Assembly: GCA_963730605.1 (NCBI GenBank)
Contig: CAVSSM010000001.1
Location: 673,987 to 737,986, forward strand
DNA: 64,000 nt
From: an uncultured Chlamydiae bacterium
GTDB taxonomy: Bacteria; Chlamydiota; Chlamydiia; Chlamydiales; SM23-39
Reading direction: 5' to 3'
The notes under the pieces were generated by a model that did not search any database, was not told where the DNA came from, and saw only the letters and a list, made by a program, of their open reading frames with translations. The stretch's first letter is position 1. Each line of letters begins with the position of its first letter. Of this stretch, positions 9,037-53,502 are shown in pieces. The translations under genes were made by a program, and so were the position numbers.

Positions 9037-9798
9037 ATGTGTTCTCTCATTGCGAGCGCAACAAATCCTAATCTTGGGGCACTATCTTTAGCTAATGAAC
9101 ATTTGAATCGGGTCGTAGAAAAAATGGGCGCTTTAGGGCAATTTTCAGTGACTGAGTATGATCCGAATCCCATAAACATGCACAACAAAGGGATAAAAAA
9201 CCAGATGAGAATCGGTGAGAAAATGGCTGATGTTCTAAATGGAGGCAATACCGAATTTACTGTTCAATCAGCGCTTGGACTTATGGCCCATGAAGTTGCT
9301 CATAGAATATTAAAACACAATGAACAAACCATTGCATTTTTGCTTGAATCGCAAGGTATTCCTGTCAAATCGTTAGATGACCTGGTAGAAGTTTTATCAG
9401 GAACTCCTGAGACACAGTCAGCAAAACGTCTTTTCATAGATTACCACAATTGGGCATCAGGAGAGACTCCAGAAAGTGTAGAGAAGCTTATAAACTCAGT
9501 GAATCAAAAAATATCAGAATTTTATCGGAATCAAGAAAAGGAAGCGGATCTTCTTACAATGAGAGACTCCTATCTTGCACGAGGACTCAGAGACTATTTT
9601 GTAAGAATCATCGAAAATTGCGAAAAAAATCCTGAATTTCACTGCTCTGTCTCCTATGTGGATGATGAAAAACATCCATCGACAGTTAGCCGCATTCACT
9701 ATATGACTCGTGCGCTTTGTCAAGAGTATCCAGAAGAAAATAGTGATATTTGCCCCGATACAGACTCGCGATATGGAAGCTATACTGCGACCGCTTAG
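9037..9798 (+). CDS. M48-family zinc metalloprotease-like protein
   Basis: AHEVAH, QEKEAD and HPSTVSRI motifs. Confidence 0.75.
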   Translation: MCSLIASATNPNLGALSLANEHLNRVVEKMGALGQFSVTEYDPNPINMHNKGIKNQMRIGEKMADVLNGGNTEFTVQSALGLMAHEVAHRILKHNEQTIAFLLESQGIPVKSLDDLVEVLSGTPETQSAKRLFIDYHNWASGETPESVEKLINSVNQKISEFYRNQEKEADLLTMRDSYLARGLRDYFVRIIENCEKNPEFHCSVSYVDDEKHPSTVSRIHYMTRALCQEYPEENSDICPDTDSRYGSYTATA

Positions 9799-9944
9799 GT
9801 TGTGTGAATTTTGACAGCGGATTTTGCGTTCCAGTAGCATTGCGGAGATCGCCGCAAACTTCAGTATGTTAGCAAGATCGAGCAATGCGCTGGGGCGCAA
9901 AAGGCGCTCAACAAAATTCACTCAAACTGAGTGGGCGCGGTATA
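9781..9944. mobile_element. ~164-bp TA-flanked palindromic element (subfamily A)
   Basis: Ends tatactgcg...cgcggtata; arms gtgaattttg / caaaattcac; similar to revcomp of 19012-19176. Confidence 0.85.
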
Positions 9945-11896: not shown

Positions 11897-13219
11897 TTAA
11901 GAGCTTAACTCTGTTTTTTGACGAGGCTGGATCTTGATTTTCTTGATCGACCGCTCGTTCGAGGAGAGGACTTCGAGGTCGAACTCGTCATGGGAGAGGC
12001 GCCAGCCTTTGGAGGGAATCGTCCCAGCGCAGTGGTAGACGTAGCCCCCGATCGTCTCATATTCGGGATTGGGAGGGATCTTGAGGCCGAGGCGCTCCTC
12101 GATGTCGTGGATCGTCATCTTGGCGTCGACGATCCAGCCGCCGCCCGGCACTTCCCAAAATTCGTGTTCTTCTCCGACATCGTACTCGTCTTCGATCTCT
12201 CCGACAAGCTCTTCCAAAATGTCTTCGATCGTCACGATCCCTTCCGTCCCGCCGTATTCATCGACGATGATCGCCATGTGGATCTGCTTATTGCGGAACT
12301 CCTGGAGGAGCTGGGTGATCTTCTTATTTTCGGGGGCGTACAAGACAGGTTTGGCGATGGTCTGGAGCGGTTCTTTGAGATCCTGGTTGGGGTTGACGTA
12401 GCATTTAAGCAGGTCTTTATAGAGAACGACGCCCAAGATCTGATCGAGAGACTCGCGGTAGATGGGGATGCGGCTATACCCTTCCGCCGCAAAGAGCGGG
12501 GCCGCTTCCTGGATCGTCGTATCGGCCGCGAGGGCATAGACATCGACGCGGGGGACCATGATCTCTTTCCCTACCCTTTCTTTGAAATTGATGAAGGAAG
12601 CGATCAGCCTTTGGTCAGTCGGGGCCAGGTGTTGTTGGAGATCCGATTCACTGATCATTTCGCGCAATTTCGCTTTGTCGGTGAGAAGGTCTTCTCCCTC
12701 AAGAGGGGCTTTCTTGAAGAGCGTCTGGTGTAATTGCAAAAGGAGCCCGACCAAAGGAAAAAGGAGTGTGAGGTAGATCGAGGCGAAGGGAGCTGCGAAT
12801 TTCAACATGGGACGGATCCAAGCATTGGCCATCGTCCGGGCCAAGAAGTCCGCAAGTAGCGACACGGCGATGATGATTGCTCCGATCGCGAGCAGTGGGA
12901 CCCAATCTCTTAAGCCAGAGATTTGGGAGATCATCGCCTTAAAATAGGAAATGCGTTCCACCAGAAAGAAAAAGGCGCACGTTGCATAAGCCAGTTGGAA
13001 GATGTGATTGGTCAATGATATCGCAAAATAGAGATTCTCCCATTCGTTTTTTGGGAAAATCGATTTGAGGATCGAGCGGAAAAAGAAAAAGGGACGGCGC
13101 GGGGCGCGGAAGATTTCCTTGGCCTTGAACTTGCCAAGGCGAATCAACGCAGAGGTGCAAATCGTCAAACATACAGTTCCAAACAAAAAAAACAGGGCAA
13201 GAATGAGGAGTTCGCTCAT
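11897..13219 (-). CDS. hemolysin/CorC-family CBS-domain membrane protein
   Basis: EIMVPRVD, YSRIPIY, IVDEYGGTEGIVTIEDILEELVGEIEDEYD. Confidence 0.93.
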   Translation of the reverse strand: MSELLILALFFLFGTVCLTICTSALIRLGKFKAKEIFRAPRRPFFFFRSILKSIFPKNEWENLYFAISLTNHIFQLAYATCAFFFLVERISYFKAMISQISGLRDWVPLLAIGAIIIAVSLLADFLARTMANAWIRPMLKFAAPFASIYLTLLFPLVGLLLQLHQTLFKKAPLEGEDLLTDKAKLREMISESDLQQHLAPTDQRLIASFINFKERVGKEIMVPRVDVYALAADTTIQEAAPLFAAEGYSRIPIYRESLDQILGVVLYKDLLKCYVNPNQDLKEPLQTIAKPVLYAPENKKITQLLQEFRNKQIHMAIIVDEYGGTEGIVTIEDILEELVGEIEDEYDVGEEHEFWEVPGGGWIVDAKMTIHDIEERLGLKIPPNPEYETIGGYVYHCAGTIPSKGWRLSHDEFDLEVLSSNERSIKKIKIQPRQKTELSS

Positions 13220-13800
13220 GGAGTGATTTTTAATTTAAGCTGTTTGAGATGATCCATACACTTTTTCTCCATTTTGCGCATCGATCGTTTCGCATTGGGC
13301 TCAATATCATCGTAGCCAATCAGGTGGAGGATGCCATGGATGAGATAGAGAAGAGTCTCTTCATAGGGGCGGGCGGGATCGAAGCGTTGCGCCGCAAGAG
13401 GGCAGATAAAAATATCCCCCAAATATACCGCGCGCGTCCAGTCTTGACAGGTTCTGACCGGCTGCGACTTTGCAGAATCGATCCTCGTCGTCGCCCTTCC
13501 CAATTCGGGAATGGTGCTCCTCCTGCGAATCAATTCTGCTTTGTCTCGCGCGGTCATAACATGCCAATCCTGACCGCGCGCAGTATGTACCGCGTCGACT
13601 GGAAAGGAGATGCAATCGGTCAGGCTTGGGTCGTTAAAGAATTCAACATGTAGCTGGCAGATTTTTTTCTCAGAGACAAAATAAACAGAGATTTCTTCGC
13701 ACTGAATGCGAAGAAATGAACACAACCCCCCTAATACTCTTCGAACGGAGCTTTTAGAAATGGGGAGAGCCTTTTGTCGATTGTATATATTGAAGTTCAC
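13216..13800 (-). CDS. ybeY: rRNA maturation endoribonuclease YbeY carrying a 54-aa element-derived insertion
   Basis: TDCISFP ... LGDIFIC ... HGILHLIGYDD motifs. Confidence 0.92.
   Translation of the reverse strand: MNFNIYNRQKALPISKSSVRRVLGGLCSFLRIQCEEISVYFVSEKKICQLHVEFFNDPSLTDCISFPVDAVHTARGQDWHVMTARDKAELIRRRSTIPELGRATTRIDSAKSQPVRTCQDWTRAVYLGDIFICPLAAQRFDPARPYEETLLYLIHGILHLIGYDDIEPNAKRSMRKMEKKCMDHLKQLKLKITP
13424..13587. mobile_element. ~164-bp palindromic element inserted in-frame in ybeY (subfamily B)
   Basis: ~60-bp imperfect terminal inverted arms; core similar to the kdsB copy. Confidence 0.88.
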
Positions 13801-13955
13801 GCTACAGGGGTTTTAGGCAGCCCGGTCACTTTTGTATTTTGACCGTCAACCCATCTTCCGAGTTTGCGAAGCATGTCGACCCTCTCGAAGCGCTTGAGAA
13901 CGTTCCGCTTTTTTCCGCCTTTATTGGTTTTGCCGTAGCTCGTGTGTCTGCTCAT
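13797..13955 (-). CDS. PVC-superphylum small basic signature protein (CT421.2-like)
   Basis: Manual translation MSRHTSYGKTNKGGKKRNVLKRFERVDMLRKLGRWVDGQNTKVTGLPKTPVA; stop overlaps ybeY GTG. Confidence 0.9.
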   Translation of the reverse strand: MSRHTSYGKTNKGGKKRNVLKRFERVDMLRKLGRWVDGQNTKVTGLPKTPVA

Positions 13956-15925: not shown

Positions 15926-16675
15926 TTATTTGGCAACCTTCGCGACGAACCGATAGGGAAGATCCACGCATTCTTCCGCGTAATCGATCCCGATGCGTGG
16001 AGTGGTTTGGAACTCTTTGATCTTGATTCCAGGCGCGATCCAAACCGCTTCCGATTCCGAATCGAGCGGGATCCCTGTGAGCCGAACGGTAATGCCGAGG
16101 GCAGCCGTCAAGGCTCCAGGGCCGCCTGTAAGCGTTGGGTCAAGCCGGGTTTTCTTTCGCCTTTGCATCATGATCTCGATGCCGTGGGTCGGCTGTATCG
16201 TCCGGACGAGGATCCCATGAGGGACGCCGGCATCTCCGGTGACGACGTTGAAAAGGGCGTGGATTCCATAGCAAAGATAGACGTAGGCGACGCCGCCTTG
16301 CCGGTACAGCACTTCCGTTCTAGGCGTCCTCCGCCCTCCATAGGCATGGCTCGCTTTGTCTTCCACTCCTGCGTAGCTTTCGGTCTCGGTGATGATCCCG
16401 CCGGTCAGATGTCCGTCGATGCGGGTAAAGAGACTGCAGCCAAGCAGGTTCTTCGCCGCTTCAACGACATCGGGATTCCGAAAGACAAGACGCTCTAACC
16501 CCGCCCTCCAAATAGATGACAAATGGCTTGCTGCGGCTTTGTCATATCGATCCTCTTCGCTCGCCTTGGCTTTAAGCAATGGCCTTCGCTCATACGGAAC
16601 GCTTCGCTTCGATCTGACTTTCACACCCCTTCCGACGATGCGTCGGTGGGGACCCCGTGCGCCTTGCTGAGCCAT
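15926..16675 (-). CDS. mpg: DNA-3-methyladenine glycosylase (MPG/AAG family); first ~59 codons lie in a palindromic element
   Basis: ITETESY, DKASHA, YVYLCYGIH, GPG, PRIGI; true start uncertain. Confidence 0.88.
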   Translation of the reverse strand: MAQQGARGPHRRIVGRGVKVRSKRSVPYERRPLLKAKASEEDRYDKAAASHLSSIWRAGLERLVFRNPDVVEAAKNLLGCSLFTRIDGHLTGGIITETESYAGVEDKASHAYGGRRTPRTEVLYRQGGVAYVYLCYGIHALFNVVTGDAGVPHGILVRTIQPTHGIEIMMQRRKKTRLDPTLTGGPGALTAALGITVRLTGIPLDSESEAVWIAPGIKIKEFQTTPRIGIDYAEECVDLPYRFVAKVAK

Positions 16676-16705
16676 TTGTTGCCACCTCTTTGAATGCCGG
16701 GGTTA
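16496..16705. mobile_element. ~210-bp TA-flanked palindromic element between rnr and mpg, with nested short hairpin at 16626-16656
   Basis: taaccccgccctccaaatagatgacaaatggct vs revcomp of right end taaccccggcattcaaagaggtggcaacaaatggct. Confidence 0.75.
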
Positions 16706-18847
16706 GTAACCGCGATCTTTCTTTTGGGCTGGGCGGGTGGGGGGAGGGGGGATAATGGACCATTCTGTTTGTTGGAGGGTATAGTCGATGCGATCCAAAC
16801 GGACGAATATGGTTTGGCCGACCGCGTAGCTTCTTCCGGACCTCGAGCCGCGGAGCGTCATCGCTTGAGGATTGAATTCGAAATAGTCGTTGCCGATTTG
16901 AGAGATGTGCAAGGAGGCTTCGAGATCGAAAAAGGAAACTTCGAAAAAGAGGGCAAACGGTTTGATGCGGGTGACTGTTGCCTGATAGGGGCGCGTCAAG
17001 TCTTCGGCGAAATAAGTTCCGGCAAGCCGGAGTTTTTTCAAAAGCTTGACCGAGCTTTCGGCCCTAAAGGAGACTCTCTCCTTTTCTGAGCATTTTAAGG
17101 CGATGGCGTCCAAATCGGCATCGTCTGGCAGTTCATCGCAAAGAAGCCGCTGGATGATCAGGTCGGTGTAGCGCCGGATGGGGCTCGTGAAATGGCAGTA
17201 ATGCTCGAGCGCCAAACCGTAATGGCCGATATTTTCTGGCGAATAGGCGGCAAGCCTCATGCTCCGGATGAAGCTGATCGAGAGTTGGGAGAGCAGGGGT
17301 GAGTCCTTCGCATCTTGGAAGAGTTTTTGGATGTCGCGGTGAGTGGGATCGGCAGGAAGCTTAAACCCTAGAGTTCTCGCAAATGCGTAAAAGTCTTTAA
17401 ACGATTCGGCAGACGGCTCTTCATGGACCCGGTAGATAAGAGTTTTGCCTTGGCGCTGGAGATGGGATGCCGCAATCTCATTGGCCTTGAGCATGAACTC
17501 TTCAATCATCTGATGGGTGATATCGTATTCGATCCTCTCGATCCGAAGAGGGATGCCATCTTTGTCGACAATTAGGACGTTATCAGGCATGGAAAAATCG
17601 ATGCTGCCGCGCTCGAACCTTTTCCGCTTCAAAATATGGCAGAGCTCCACCATCAGCTCCAGCAGGCTGGAATGGGGCGATTTTTCCTTTTTCTCGAGGA
17701 CGGCCATGGCTTCTTTGTAAGTGAAACGCTTGCGGCTTTTGATCACGGTGCGTCGGATCTCATAGCGGATCATATTGCCGTCCCCATCGAACTCGGCGAG
17801 AACCGATTGGGCGAGCCTCTTCACATTGGCTTTCAGGCTGCAGAGCTCGTTGGAGAGCTCTTCGGGCAGCATCGGGACGCACTGACCGGGAAAATAGGTC
17901 GAATTGCATCTCTCAAAGCTTTCCGTATCGAGGTGGCTTCCCGGAAGAACGTAGTGGGCGACATCGGCGATATGGACGCCGAGATGATAATGTCCCTCGC
18001 TATCTCGGGTAAGCGATATGGCGTCGTCGTAATCGCGGGCTGTATCGGGATCGATCGTAACGCATTCGAATCCGGTCAGATCGAGCCGGTTTTTACACTC
18101 TTTGACCGAAACCTTGGCCCCGTAGGCTCTTGCCTCCTCGATCGCTTCCACGGAAAAGCCGTCCGGCAGATCGAACTCGGCAATGGCCGCTTCGGTGTCG
18201 ATCGAAGGATCGGAGATGTTGCCGATCATGCGGGTCAGCGTTGCCTCCACAAGGTCCGATTCACCGCCCCAAGAAACGATCTTACAAATGACCCGGTCTC
18301 CCTCTTCCAACGTTATCCCTTTGCTGGCCTTAAGCAAAATAAGTTTATCTGATCCCAATAAAGGAGAAAACGCCTTGTAGCCCCGCCCCGATTTGCCTAC
18401 GACCGTTCCCGCCAAAGAGGTGCGGCTCCTTTTCAAGATGGCGATGACGGTCCCTTCGGGCCCTTTTACGGTGACAATGGGTTCGATTTCGATTTCGACC
18501 TCGTCCCCGTCGACCGCATCGTTCAACCTCTGTTTCGGGATAAAGACATCGGGACCCGCGGCGTTCTTGACGAAGCCGAACCCTTTCGGATGGACGCTGA
18601 TCGTCCCGGTCACCAAGGCCGCTCCGTTCGGCGCCGTATATTTATTGTTTTGGAGCACGAGGGCTTTGTCCTCGATCAATTGTCCCAAAACGACCTTCAA
18701 TCGGTCTCGATGGATGGGAGCGACTGCAAGCTGTTCGACGAGTTCTTCGTAAGTGGCCGGTTTGTAGCGTCTTCCTTGGATGAACTGGAGGATGGTCTTT
18801 GCGAGGTTTTGGGAGAGCTTCTCCCCCTTCTTTCTTCTGGATTTCAT
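16703..18847 (-). CDS. rnr: ribonuclease R
   Basis: HPKGFGFV CSD, TIDPDTARDYDDAIS, HFTSPIRRYTDL, C-terminal S1. Confidence 0.96.
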   Translation of the reverse strand: MKSRRKKGEKLSQNLAKTILQFIQGRRYKPATYEELVEQLAVAPIHRDRLKVVLGQLIEDKALVLQNNKYTAPNGAALVTGTISVHPKGFGFVKNAAGPDVFIPKQRLNDAVDGDEVEIEIEPIVTVKGPEGTVIAILKRSRTSLAGTVVGKSGRGYKAFSPLLGSDKLILLKASKGITLEEGDRVICKIVSWGGESDLVEATLTRMIGNISDPSIDTEAAIAEFDLPDGFSVEAIEEARAYGAKVSVKECKNRLDLTGFECVTIDPDTARDYDDAISLTRDSEGHYHLGVHIADVAHYVLPGSHLDTESFERCNSTYFPGQCVPMLPEELSNELCSLKANVKRLAQSVLAEFDGDGNMIRYEIRRTVIKSRKRFTYKEAMAVLEKKEKSPHSSLLELMVELCHILKRKRFERGSIDFSMPDNVLIVDKDGIPLRIERIEYDITHQMIEEFMLKANEIAASHLQRQGKTLIYRVHEEPSAESFKDFYAFARTLGFKLPADPTHRDIQKLFQDAKDSPLLSQLSISFIRSMRLAAYSPENIGHYGLALEHYCHFTSPIRRYTDLIIQRLLCDELPDDADLDAIALKCSEKERVSFRAESSVKLLKKLRLAGTYFAEDLTRPYQATVTRIKPFALFFEVSFFDLEASLHISQIGNDYFEFNPQAMTLRGSRSGRSYAVGQTIFVRLDRIDYTLQQTEWSIIPPPPTRPAQKKDRGY

Positions 18848-18850
18848 TAT

Positions 18851-19013
18851 TAACCCGCTGTGCAAATATGAGACATTTCTTCAGGACGTAGATTGTCCAT
18901 CTCTGCGTTGCCCTGCTTCGACAACCCACTTCGGGGTTGCCTGCATCGGGCGCCTTGATCTGAACAATCTCCGTTTACCTGCATAAATTGTCTCCTATTT
19001 GCGTAGCGGGTTA
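18851..19013. mobile_element. 163-bp TA-flanked palindromic element (subfamily C)
   Basis: taacccgctgtgcaaatatgagacattt vs revcomp of end taacccgctacgcaaataggagacaattt. Confidence 0.85.
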
Positions 19014-39621: not shown

Positions 39622-40495
39622 CTACCTGCGCTCCGTCAGGTTTTGTGAATTTTGGCTGGCTACGCCTTTGAGGAACCGATCTTTCTCGTCAGCCTTCCCT
39701 ATTCGGGAATGGTCTTCCTCATTGGGATCAATTTTGCTTTGGCTCGCAGAGCCAAAATTCACAAAACCTTCCTGCACACGGTTCAAGTATTCTTCAAGTT
39801 TTACGAGGGCGGGGGGTGTGTCGACACTGGGCGCTTTTATCGGCCAAGGAGACTTTGATCCGAGAGTTCCCAATTCAATCCAAAGGGTCCGAGTGTTCGT
39901 TTTCTGGAGGTCGGTCGTTTTCAAGGAGGGGAGATGCTCCAAAAAAGCCCTGCGGTAGCAATAAATGCCATATGGGCAAAGGCAAAGAGAGGGCGTTTAG
40001 AGAAATGGCAGGGAATGGGCGCGCGGCTGAAGTAGAGGGCGTAGCCATTGACGTCAAAAACGCATCAACGACATCAGGAGAGAGGAAATCCTCCCTGTTC
40101 CGTATCGGGGGGCGGCGGTCGCTAGACTTGCGTCTTTGGAGGAGCGGAGATCCCCGGCGATCTTTACGATCGTCTCAGGCTTCGTGCAGGGGTGATCTCC
40201 TTGGAGGACCATGACATAGGAGGCCTTCTGGAGTACAGCATGGCGGCTCAAGGCCTCAATGACCCTCGCGGTTCCGTCGCGGGGGGCCGTCGAGGTCCAG
40301 CACCTCCCCGCCTATTTGCCTTACATGCTCCGCAATCCTTTCGCATCAGTGGCGACGTAGAGGCTGCTTAAGGATGGACAACGGCTGGCGCATTCAAACG
40401 TTCTCTGGAGAACCGTCTTTCCTTGGGCTTTTGCAGTAGTTTCCCGGGAAAACGGGAGCTGTTGATCGGGCTGGGATGACGCAGGCAAGTGACAT
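39622..40495 (-). pseudogene. kdsB: KdsB, frameshifted mirror copy (element copy at ~39621-39785)
   Basis: Mirror of 52615-53502 with many indels. Confidence 0.75.
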
Positions 40496-45946: not shown

Positions 45947-46557
45947 ATTGATCAAGATCAAAAAGGCGAACTTTCGATTCCAGAGAGAAACGGTCCGCCT
46001 TTATTACCGGAAGAGCTGGCGCTTTGCCCTCTCCGATTTGGCCCTTGGATCTTGCGACCCTCTTTTTCAACCCCTACCGAATCTGCCGAAAAAAGGGACC
46101 ACCTACGGAGAGACCCCTCCCTCCTCCTTGCATCGGATCGCCTCATTCTGCTCGCTCTCCTCCAATGACAGCTATCTCGAGCTCGGATCAGGTAGGGGAA
46201 AAGGGTGTATTTGGATCTCTCAATTTGTCGGGTGCCGCGCCATCGGCGTTGAGAAAGTTCCCCTGTTTTTTCATCTTTCTCGAGGAACCTCGGCCCTTTT
46301 TGGTTTTAAGCGTGTCACATTCATTAAAGCCGATATGGCGGAGGCCGATTTTTCAGGGGCGAGCTGCGTCTACCTTTACAGCACTTGCATGGGCGAAGAG
46401 GAGCTCTCCCGCCTTACTCAAAAAATGGCGGGCTTGCCCCAAGGTGCAAAAGTCGTTTCTGTCAGCGCCCCAATGCCCGAAACGCCCCACCTTGCCCTCC
46501 GAGGGTCGTTCCCCCTTTCTTTTCCTAGGGGAGAGGCGGAAGAGTATCCTAAATGTG
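45933..46557 (+). pseudogene. class I SAM-dependent methyltransferase cut at the palindrome centre
   Basis: ELGSGRG motif I, VYLYSTC; indels; reads into the fold point. Confidence 0.7.
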
Positions 46558-47184
46558 CACATGCAAGATACCCTTCCGCCTCTCCCCAAGGAAAAGAAAG
46601 GAGGGAACGACCCTCGGAGGGCAAGGTGGGGCGTTTCGGGCATTGGGGCGCTGACAGAAACGACTTTTGCACCTTGGGGCAAGCCCGCCATTTTTTGAGT
46701 AAGGCGGGAGAGCTCCTCTTCGCCCATGCAAGTGCTGTAAAGGTAGACGCAGCTCGCCCCTGAAAAATCGGCCTCCGCCATATCGGCTTTAATGAATGTG
46801 ACACGCTTAAAACCAAAAAGGGCCGAGGTTCCTCGAGAAAGATGTAAAAACAGGGGAACTTTCTCAACGCCGATGGCGCGGCACCCGACAAATTGAGAGA
46901 TCCTAACAGACCCTTTTCCCCTACCTGATCCGAGCTCGAGATAGCTGTCATTGGAGGAGAGCGAGCAGAATGAGGCGATCCGATGCAAGGAGGAGGGAGG
47001 GGTCTCTCCGTAGGTGGTCCCTTTTTTTTCGGCAGATTCGGTAGGGGTTGAAAAAGAGGGTCGCAAATCCAAGGGCCAAATCGGAGAGGGCAAAGCGCCA
47101 GCTCTTCCGGGTAATAAAGGCGGACCGTTTCTCTCGGAATCCAAAGTTCGCCTTTTTGATCTTGATCAATTCACCAATTGACAT
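46558..47184 (-). pseudogene. class I SAM-dependent methyltransferase, mirror copy cut at the centre
   Basis: ELGSGRG motif; indels. Confidence 0.7.
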
Positions 47185-52614: not shown

Positions 52615-53502
52615 ATGTCACTTGCCTGCGTCATCCCAGCCCGATACAACAGCTCCCGTTTTCCCGGGAAACTGCTTGCAAAAGCCCAAGGAAAGACGGT
52701 TCTCCAGAGAACGTTTGAATGCGCCAGCCGTTGTCCATCCTTAAGCAGCCTCTACGTCGCCACTGATGACGAAAGGATTGCGGAGCATGTGAGGCAAATA
52801 GGCGGGGAGGTACTATGGACCTCGACGGCCCCCCGCGACGGAACCGCGAGGGTCATTGAGGCCTTGAGCCGCCATGCTGTACTCCAGAAGGCCTCCTATG
52901 TCATGGTCCTCCAAGGAGATCACCCCTGCACGAAGCCTGAGACGATCGTAAAGATCGCCGAGGATCTCCGCTCCTCCAAAGACGCAAGTCTAGCGACCGC
53001 CGCCGCCCCGATACGGAACAGGGAGGATTTCCTCTCTCCTGATGTCGTTAAGTGCGTTTTTGACGTCAATGGCTACGCCCTCTATTTCAGCCGCGCGCCC
53101 ATTCCCTGCCATTTCTCTAAACGCCCTCTCTTTGCCTTTGCCCATATCGGCATTTATTGCTACCGCAGGGCTTTTTTGGAGCGTCTGGCCTCCTTGAAAA
53201 CGACCGACCTTCAGGAAAACGAAGATTTGGAACAGCTCAAGGTGCTTGAATTGGGATACCGGATCAAAGTCTCCTTGGCCGATGAAAAAACGCCCAGTGT
53301 CGACACACCGTCTGACCTCGTAAAACTTGAAGAATACTTGAACCGTGTGCAGGAAGGTTTTGTGAATTTTGGCTCTGCGAGCCAAAGCAAAATTGATCCG
53401 AATGAGGAAGACCATTCCCGAATAGGGAAGGCTGACGAGGAGGGTCGATTTTGCAAAGGCGTAGCCAGCCAAAATTCACAAAACCTGACGGAGCGCGGTT
53501 GA
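52615..53502 (+). CDS. kdsB: CMP-Kdo synthetase with element-derived 53-aa C-terminal tail
   Basis: IPARYNSSRFPGK, ALYFSRAPIP, EDLEQLKVLE, SVDTPSDL. Confidence 0.93.
   Translation: MSLACVIPARYNSSRFPGKLLAKAQGKTVLQRTFECASRCPSLSSLYVATDDERIAEHVRQIGGEVLWTSTAPRDGTARVIEALSRHAVLQKASYVMVLQGDHPCTKPETIVKIAEDLRSSKDASLATAAAPIRNREDFLSPDVVKCVFDVNGYALYFSRAPIPCHFSKRPLFAFAHIGIYCYRRAFLERLASLKTTDLQENEDLEQLKVLELGYRIKVSLADEKTPSVDTPSDLVKLEEYLNRVQEGFVNFGSASQSKIDPNEEDHSRIGKADEEGRFCKGVASQNSQNLTERG
53339..53502. mobile_element. ~164-bp palindromic element at the kdsB/pyrG junction
   Basis: aaccgtgtgcaggaaggttttgtgaattttggct vs revcomp of end aaccgcgctccgtcaggttttgtgaattttggct. Confidence 0.88.

Follow-up and report, generated by a model that had tools for sequence, protein, structure and literature searches.

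A palindromic MITE lies in frame within the ybeY gene of an uncultured chlamydial bacterium

The ybeY locus and its insert

The window (the whole 64,000-nt stretch of DNA analyzed here) comes from a chlamydial host, as indicated by Chlam_OMP and TLC matches, and carries on its minus strand an open reading frame whose product is YbeY (UPF0054). This assignment follows both from the family profiles (PF02130, E 5.5e-23; TIGR00043, above cut-off) and from the predicted fold, whose best matches were the YbeY structures 1oz9, 7y7o, and 1xm5. The gene starts with GTG and ends with TGA, the former overlapping the stop codon of the upstream gene and the latter the ATG of the next gene. A scan for promoters and terminators gave signal only at shuffle level. 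The features of the locus are listed below.

11897..13219, minus strand: CNNM/CBS/CorC gene, downstream; its start overlaps the ybeY stop
13216..13800, minus strand: ybeY (PF02130, TIGR00043), 194 aa with the insert, 140 aa without
13306..13338, minus strand: metal-site motif HGILHLIGYDD, with H155, H159, and D165 replacing the third His
13424..13587, minus strand: palindromic MITE of 164 bp, counting both dinucleotides of the target duplication; net 162 nt = 54 codons
13424..13425, minus strand: 3' copy of the duplicated TA, positions 1 and 2 of the original Tyr codon (YLGDI)
13424..13484, minus strand: 3' arm of the imperfect inverted repeat
13438..13440, minus strand: insert codon 50, TGG (Trp); a stop (TGA/TAA) in 15/18 other aligned copies
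13527..13587, minus strand: 5' arm of the imperfect inverted repeat; 17 of its first 19 nt agree with an IS630-type right end
13564..13566, minus strand: insert codon 8, TGG (Trp); TGA in 6/7 of the closest covering copies, TGG in 1
13586..13587, minus strand: 5' copy of the duplicated TA, here CA, turning the original Tyr codon into His
13797..13955, minus strand: small basic protein gene (TIGR04137), upstream; its stop overlaps the ybeY start

The initial annotation described an in-frame insertion of 54 codons in ybeY, and this holds: the peptide HTARGQDW...QDWTRAV, basic with a net charge of +5, occupies ybeY codons 72-125 (13587-13426, net 162 nt) between ISFPVDAV and YLGDIFICP. That a canonical YbeY remains once these 162 nt are removed is corroborated by two relatives with an empty site. 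The same-genus orthologue G003 (383/435 nt identical) reads PVDASYLGDI, and in contig X7, from another study (13 differences in 238 nt), 13425 directly adjoins 13588, with exactly 162 nt missing; the latter shows the exact empty allele of a relative in DNA. The proposed placement in a variable loop, to be checked by alignment with orthologues, also agrees with the data, as this loop is short in relatives (6 to 17 residues). Of 116 parsed homologues, 106 have 6 residues between TDCISF and LGDI, 8 have 7-16, and the remaining two have 60 and 61, as counted among 120 listed of 244 matches, with 4 unparsed sequences that are also short by eye.

A repeat copy misjoined into ybeY could produce such a picture in a repeat-rich genome, and the whole element is spanned by no single public contig. 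However, contigs without a mismatch cross each junction (X2, 13460-13733, at the 5' side; X4, 13323-13506, at the 3' side) and overlap within the element at 13460-13506, although the underlying runs may be the source samples of the assembly and hence not independent of it. The ybeY copy is moreover unique in the assembly and carries private changes. An assembly artefact is thus exceedingly improbable.

The description of the insert as a DNA palindrome with arms of ~60 bp requires some qualification. The hairpin is real: positions 13424-13587 fold end to end as one long hairpin of -92.7 kcal/mol (z = -10.3), and none of 200 shuffles was as good. The arms are ~61 nt long and imperfect, with 43/61 positions identical in an ungapped comparison and 48 of the first 61 nt paired if G-U is allowed. 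Because of these imperfections, an ungapped inverted-repeat search did not detect the ybeY palindrome.

A family of TA-targeting palindromic elements

The cause of the insertion, which the initial annotation left unnamed, is a TA-targeting MITE from a multi-copy family. Searches with nhmmer recovered 22 matches to the ybeY element in its own genome at E<=0.1, compared with 1 at E=10 in the reversed genome, and matches were found in 28 of 103 family genomes, among them G092, with full-length copies of 83-85% identity, and G007, with a copy of 89%. The sister copies are flanked by TA, beginning with TATAC and ending with GTATA, and the element therefore measures 164 bp with the duplicated TA. 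The first base of the 5' TA is T in 9/9 close sister copies covering the position, and comparison with these copies indicates that the dinucleotide has decayed to CA in ybeY. The insertion target is the TA of the Tyr codon in YLGDI, within the β3-β4 loop. A longer target duplication, the 7-nt direct repeat CGCGGTA found at both junctions, was considered and rejected, as the sister copies share only TA.

Judged from sequence features, the insert is a palindromic, non-autonomous MITE that sits in frame where a TA has been duplicated. Its size falls in the range of ~100-400 bp and it has no transposase of its own; it has terminal inverted repeats, a stable stem-loop, a TA duplication with a corresponding empty site, dispersed copies, and ends common to an IS630 element. 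The genome as a whole contains 265 palindromes of 100-450 bp, which belong to dozens of families and amount to 53.8 kb, or 2.4% of the assembly. TA is present at both ends in 78 of 106 TATAC-type elements, and the flanks of these 106 elements contain no strong target motif beyond TA.

A candidate IS630-type transposase

The genome contains 29 IS630-type (PF13358) matches, among which IS630-A is represented by 14 equal-scoring copies; all 13 examined are TA-flanked and begin with TATACC (TATACCGCTCGTGA). A composite MITE family matches the end TATACCGCTCGTGA, of which the genome has 32 occurrences. IS630-A matches this different family much better than it matches the ybeY-element family, with which only the first 8 nt (TATACCGC) are common, and the local IS630-A was set aside as a weak candidate for the specific partner of the ybeY element. 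Genomes G063 and G104 each contain the 3' part of a DDE_3 transposase with a lone right end behind it; this right end and the 5' end of the ybeY element agree at 17/19 positions. Both transposase copies are partial. A transposase with a matching end was not found in the assembly of the host itself (best 33% identity; assembly 83% complete).

By analogy with known systems, an IS630-type transposase likely mobilized the ybeY element in trans and would have placed it at the TA of the ybeY Tyr codon. The reasoning is of the same kind as that applied to RUP of Streptococcus pneumoniae, a TA-targeting MITE whose terminal repeat matches IS630-Spn1 and whose mobilization in trans was deduced from this match (excerpts of PMC2229807). 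The ybeY element is likewise a TA-targeting MITE with an IS630-matching terminal repeat.

Probable translation of the insert

All 16 other full-length copies of the family have 1-5 stops in the frame used in ybeY, in which the TA takes codon positions 1 and 2, whereas the ybeY copy is open in it; this comparison leaves out partial rows and one row with wrong boundaries, and it is biased in that the ybeY copy was found because it is open. The next frame is open in 12 of the 16 full-length copies and is used by three other in-gene copies (YRAQEGFVN-type). Only 4 changes are private to the ybeY copy, and the TGG at codon 50 is among them. A changed genetic code, with TGA read as Trp, was also considered and rejected: 449/984 long ORFs terminate with TGA, and no tRNA-Trp other than tRNA-Trp(CCA) was detected.

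Removal from the RNA would make an open frame unnecessary, and the open frame thus favors translation; as far as the sequence comparison can indicate, the insert is likely translated and not removed. The two Trp codons at stop positions of sister copies would then have been selected because the insert is translated, either in the donor or soon after insertion. In an alternative course, the element would have landed with its UGA stops, reducing ybeY to a read-through level, and TGA-to-TGG changes would have rescued the gene in place, in which case a mobile element has been caught turning into protein sequence.

Removal from the mRNA, or bypass on it, has been weighed against translation. In such a scheme the hairpin would join its ends and a normal 140-aa YbeY would be made, and the hairpin is indeed very stable and closes end to end; a typical donor copy is also closed in this frame, such that early rescue may have been needed. 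Under this scheme neither stops nor frame would make a difference, yet the frame is open here and closed in 16/16 sisters, and none of the 3 large inserts seen in ybeY across the 94 matched genomes shifts the frame or contains a stop. Furthermore, none of 20 tested frame-breaking placements elsewhere in the genome has one Pfam family on both sides, Rfam yielded no intron or ribozyme match at E<=1 (one chance-level match lies outside the element), and the insert in Rickettsia gmk is translated (excerpts of PMC2229807). Production of YbeY by removal or bypass is accordingly rated as highly unlikely.

Predicted structure and function

An AlphaFold2 model based on a 29-row alignment gave a core with pLDDT of ~90-98 and an insert at 41-60 located between strands β3 and β4; 27 of the 29 rows lack the insert, so the confident core is partly built in. 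The comparison of models with and without the insert suggested in the initial annotation was informative on one side, the core being predicted as normal with the insert; the control lacking it (the G003 protein as a single sequence) reached a pLDDT of 50 and was discarded as uninformative. The β3-β4 loop of Staphylococcus aureus YbeY is disordered, according to excerpts of PMC9895993. The model suggests that the insert likely forms a disordered loop of 54 residues on a YbeY whose predicted fold is normal, and that the enzyme with the insert probably still works; YbeY would then keep most of its function. The earlier view of a tolerated loop insertion is supported by the variability of the loop, by the normal predicted core around a low-confidence insert, and by the dN/dS of 0.14 versus G003 in the flanks of the insert. 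This value indicates purifying selection on the flanks, though it partly reflects the time before the insertion.

The metal-binding region downstream had been called intact, which is true of two histidines and not of the third. YbeY proteins carry the metal motif H3XH5XH (excerpts of PMC4047096); here 2/3 His are kept and the third position is Asp (D165). Since Asp is common to 29/29 aligned chlamydial YbeY sequences, with or without an insert, the alignment identifies it as a lineage trait independent of the insert, and the metal site of chlamydial YbeY may be altered across the lineage. In addition, the helix-2 Arg of S. aureus YbeY is seemingly absent in chlamydial YbeY, which by eye has FFxDP there.

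The insertion could instead have crippled YbeY, leaving a weak, decaying allele that is tolerated by drift in an intracellular bacterium laden with mobile elements. YbeY is not essential in Escherichia coli (excerpts of PMC4047096), the basic insert is large relative to its 140-aa host, and in a survey with one query ybeY was matched in 94 of 103 family genomes, leaving 9 without a match, including 4 of 63 high-quality ones, in some of which the gene has possibly been truly lost. Decay is difficult to reconcile with a frame that is open where sister copies carry stops, with the low flank dN/dS (the earlier history it includes notwithstanding), with the finding of no second ybeY in this assembly, and with the absence of internal stops from all full-length ybeY matches in the survey of the 103 genomes. 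A crippled allele is therefore considered improbable. The reading in which an in-frame MITE, likely placed in trans by an IS630-type transposase, is likely translated as a disordered loop on a YbeY of normal predicted fold is held with considerable confidence.

Repeated insertion into ybeY

Large in-frame ybeY inserts occur in 3 of the 94 matched family genomes (the present genome, G002, and G017), and all are stop-free. In G002, a different palindrome of 167 bp (55 codons) occupies the same Tyr TA; its family has 80 matches in G002 (both strands counted) and none in the present genome, and its insert frame is open in 14 of 17 full-length copies. The G003 protein, with its empty site, is 88% identical to the YbeY described here, versus 62% for G002, and because the far closer G003 is empty, sequence comparison indicates that the two insertions are independent. 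In G017, an element of 308 bp (102 codons) lies in the next variable loop of the protein. A further contig (X5), 96% like the window, departs from it at the ybeY site into TATACCGAAAT, the end motif of other MITE families; although only 11 nt of the departure are visible, a third event at the same TA is probable. Eight metagenome and three genome loci examined for further alleles contained no ybeY match broken by a large insert. In the YbeY of G026, from another family, the loop that follows AIRY is longer by ~17 residues; it is in this loop that G017 has its insert.

The G003 ybeY gene holds 21 TA sites, and the repeated occupation of one of them could be explained by survival: survivors are limited to inserts of 3n length without stops in tolerant loops, and a survivor bias toward one tolerant loop is sufficient to account for recurrence at one TA. 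It is a tentative possibility, and one that we would not favor, that the Tyr-codon TA is a true recurrent landing site for at least three unrelated families and that the present element landed with UGA stops and was rescued in place. If true, recurrent landing at this TA would amount to a naturally replicated experiment on how loops evolve de novo.

That different elements have repeatedly occupied one TA might also suggest domestication, with the insert providing a new YbeY function (an RNA- or partner-binding loop) or control of the mRNA by the hairpin, and a helix is weakly predicted within the Arg-rich peptide (residues 84-95). Against this stand the different families of the two sequenced inserts at the site (the G002 element being unmatched in the present genome), the empty site in close relatives, and the peptide itself, which has no Pfam match and no conserved homologue among 120 listed of 244 matches. 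There is little reason to expect a domesticated function, which is judged very improbable, and a tolerated, translated loop is preferred.

Other insertions in genes

Coding DNA holds ~79% of the TA sites in the genome (rough gene model), while only ~13 of ~265 elements lie in open frames of genes, namely ybeY plus 12 more; these in-frame counts are approximate, as one coding classifier took the wrong ybeY strand and a later one left ybeY below threshold. Empty orthologous sites were found besides ybeY for an E1 dehydrogenase (162 nt, an insert of the same family as the ybeY element), BacA (237 nt), an E2 acyltransferase (204 nt), and RecD2. In-frame palindromes are thus present in unrelated conserved genes, as in the Rickettsia palindromic elements (RPEs) discussed below. 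Among 22 elements flagged as frame-breaking, 20 were tested: 10 lie between two different Pfam families and 10 have a family on one side only. Strong purging that spares in-frame insertions would be expected to give such a distribution. Most in-gene insertions would have been purged, the survivors being those of 3n length, without stops, and in tolerant loops.

The composite MITE family, which resembles IS630-A at the left end of the latter, was seen in open frames of five genes, encoding RecD2, a sulfatase, a secretin, an ATP/ADP translocase-like protein, and an unknown ORF. The copies are located at C7:30663-30979, C9:103305-103570, C9:107225-107493, C4:3245-3570, and C11:81443-81663, and are always read as an IPGVIEKTGIG-type peptide; in the secretin and translocase-like genes the copy lies close to the N-terminus and may precede the true start.

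Relationship to known palindromic elements

RPEs were reportedly described by Ogata et al. in 2000 and 2002. RPE-1 to RPE-10 of Rickettsia are palindromic repeats fused in frame in conserved genes, and the gmk product with its RPE insert is translated and active (excerpts of PMC10969869, PMC2229807, PMC3733652). The elements described here resemble RPEs in that both are ~150-bp palindromic repeats of several families in an obligate intracellular bacterium, located between genes or in frame within them, with a long stem-loop and, for some RPEs in the excerpted descriptions, TA ends. They differ in occurring in another phylum, the Chlamydiota, in number (about 265 versus 44 reported in R. conorii in the excerpted text), in in-frame share (about 13 of 265 versus nearly half for RPEs, as given in review excerpts), and in displaying an exact TA duplication together with IS630 ends that match. 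One conserved peptide per family would be expected of RPE-like palindromes; three other in-gene copies of the ybeY family use one frame and the ybeY copy another, and the frame of the ybeY insert is not the one naturally open in the family. By analogy, the ybeY element appears to work like RPEs; it is likened to them by description and, its host being chlamydial, not filed as an RPE proper.

RUP is intergenic and has stops in six frames, as far as its excerpted description indicates, unlike the ybeY-family elements, which have open frames and occur inside genes. ERIC/IRU (RU-1) and Correia elements are TA-flanked MITEs with long hairpins (excerpts of PMC2229807, PMC3184786), and ERIC open frames, like the present ones, fuse to genes according to the same excerpts; these elements, compared by description, occupy other hosts, and the ybeY family is G+C-rich and about 164 bp long. 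Titles and abstract openings, outside subscription journals and supplements, yielded no paper describing chlamydial MITEs or palindromic repeats, and 'Chlamyd' is absent from the main text of a MITE survey preprint, whose supplements may list such elements.

The principle of protein-coding palindromes is already known from Rickettsia, and the gain is moderate. The present case extends it to environmental Chlamydiota and supplies pieces that reviews call uncertain for RPEs, namely an exact empty site, a TA duplication, and matching IS630 ends; the added value lies in the exact empty allele, the matching IS630 end, the reuse of one TA, and the reopened frame. With independent loops of 54, 55, and 102 residues and empty alleles in close relatives, the YbeY allele set offers a compact test of the tolerance of a conserved RNase for foreign sequence and of stop-containing DNA becoming coding.

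Additional palindromic sequences

Further palindromic elements were observed in the window at 9781-9944, 18851-19013, 39638-39769, and 53341-53500, the last two being relatives of the ybeY element. Many elements in the genome lie on stop or start codons between co-directional genes (20 operon junctions; also window 16478-16727), and some of these lengthen the upstream protein by 53-55 codons before its stop. An in-frame copy of the ybeY family at C1:495566-495801 is common to this genome and the orthologous site of G003; it has gained a nested 72-bp insert, absent from the G003 copy, and is still in frame. Near-perfect, very long inverted repeats are present at window 46089-47027 (C1:720075-721013) and at C10:9233-10947, with arms of 425 and 610 bp.
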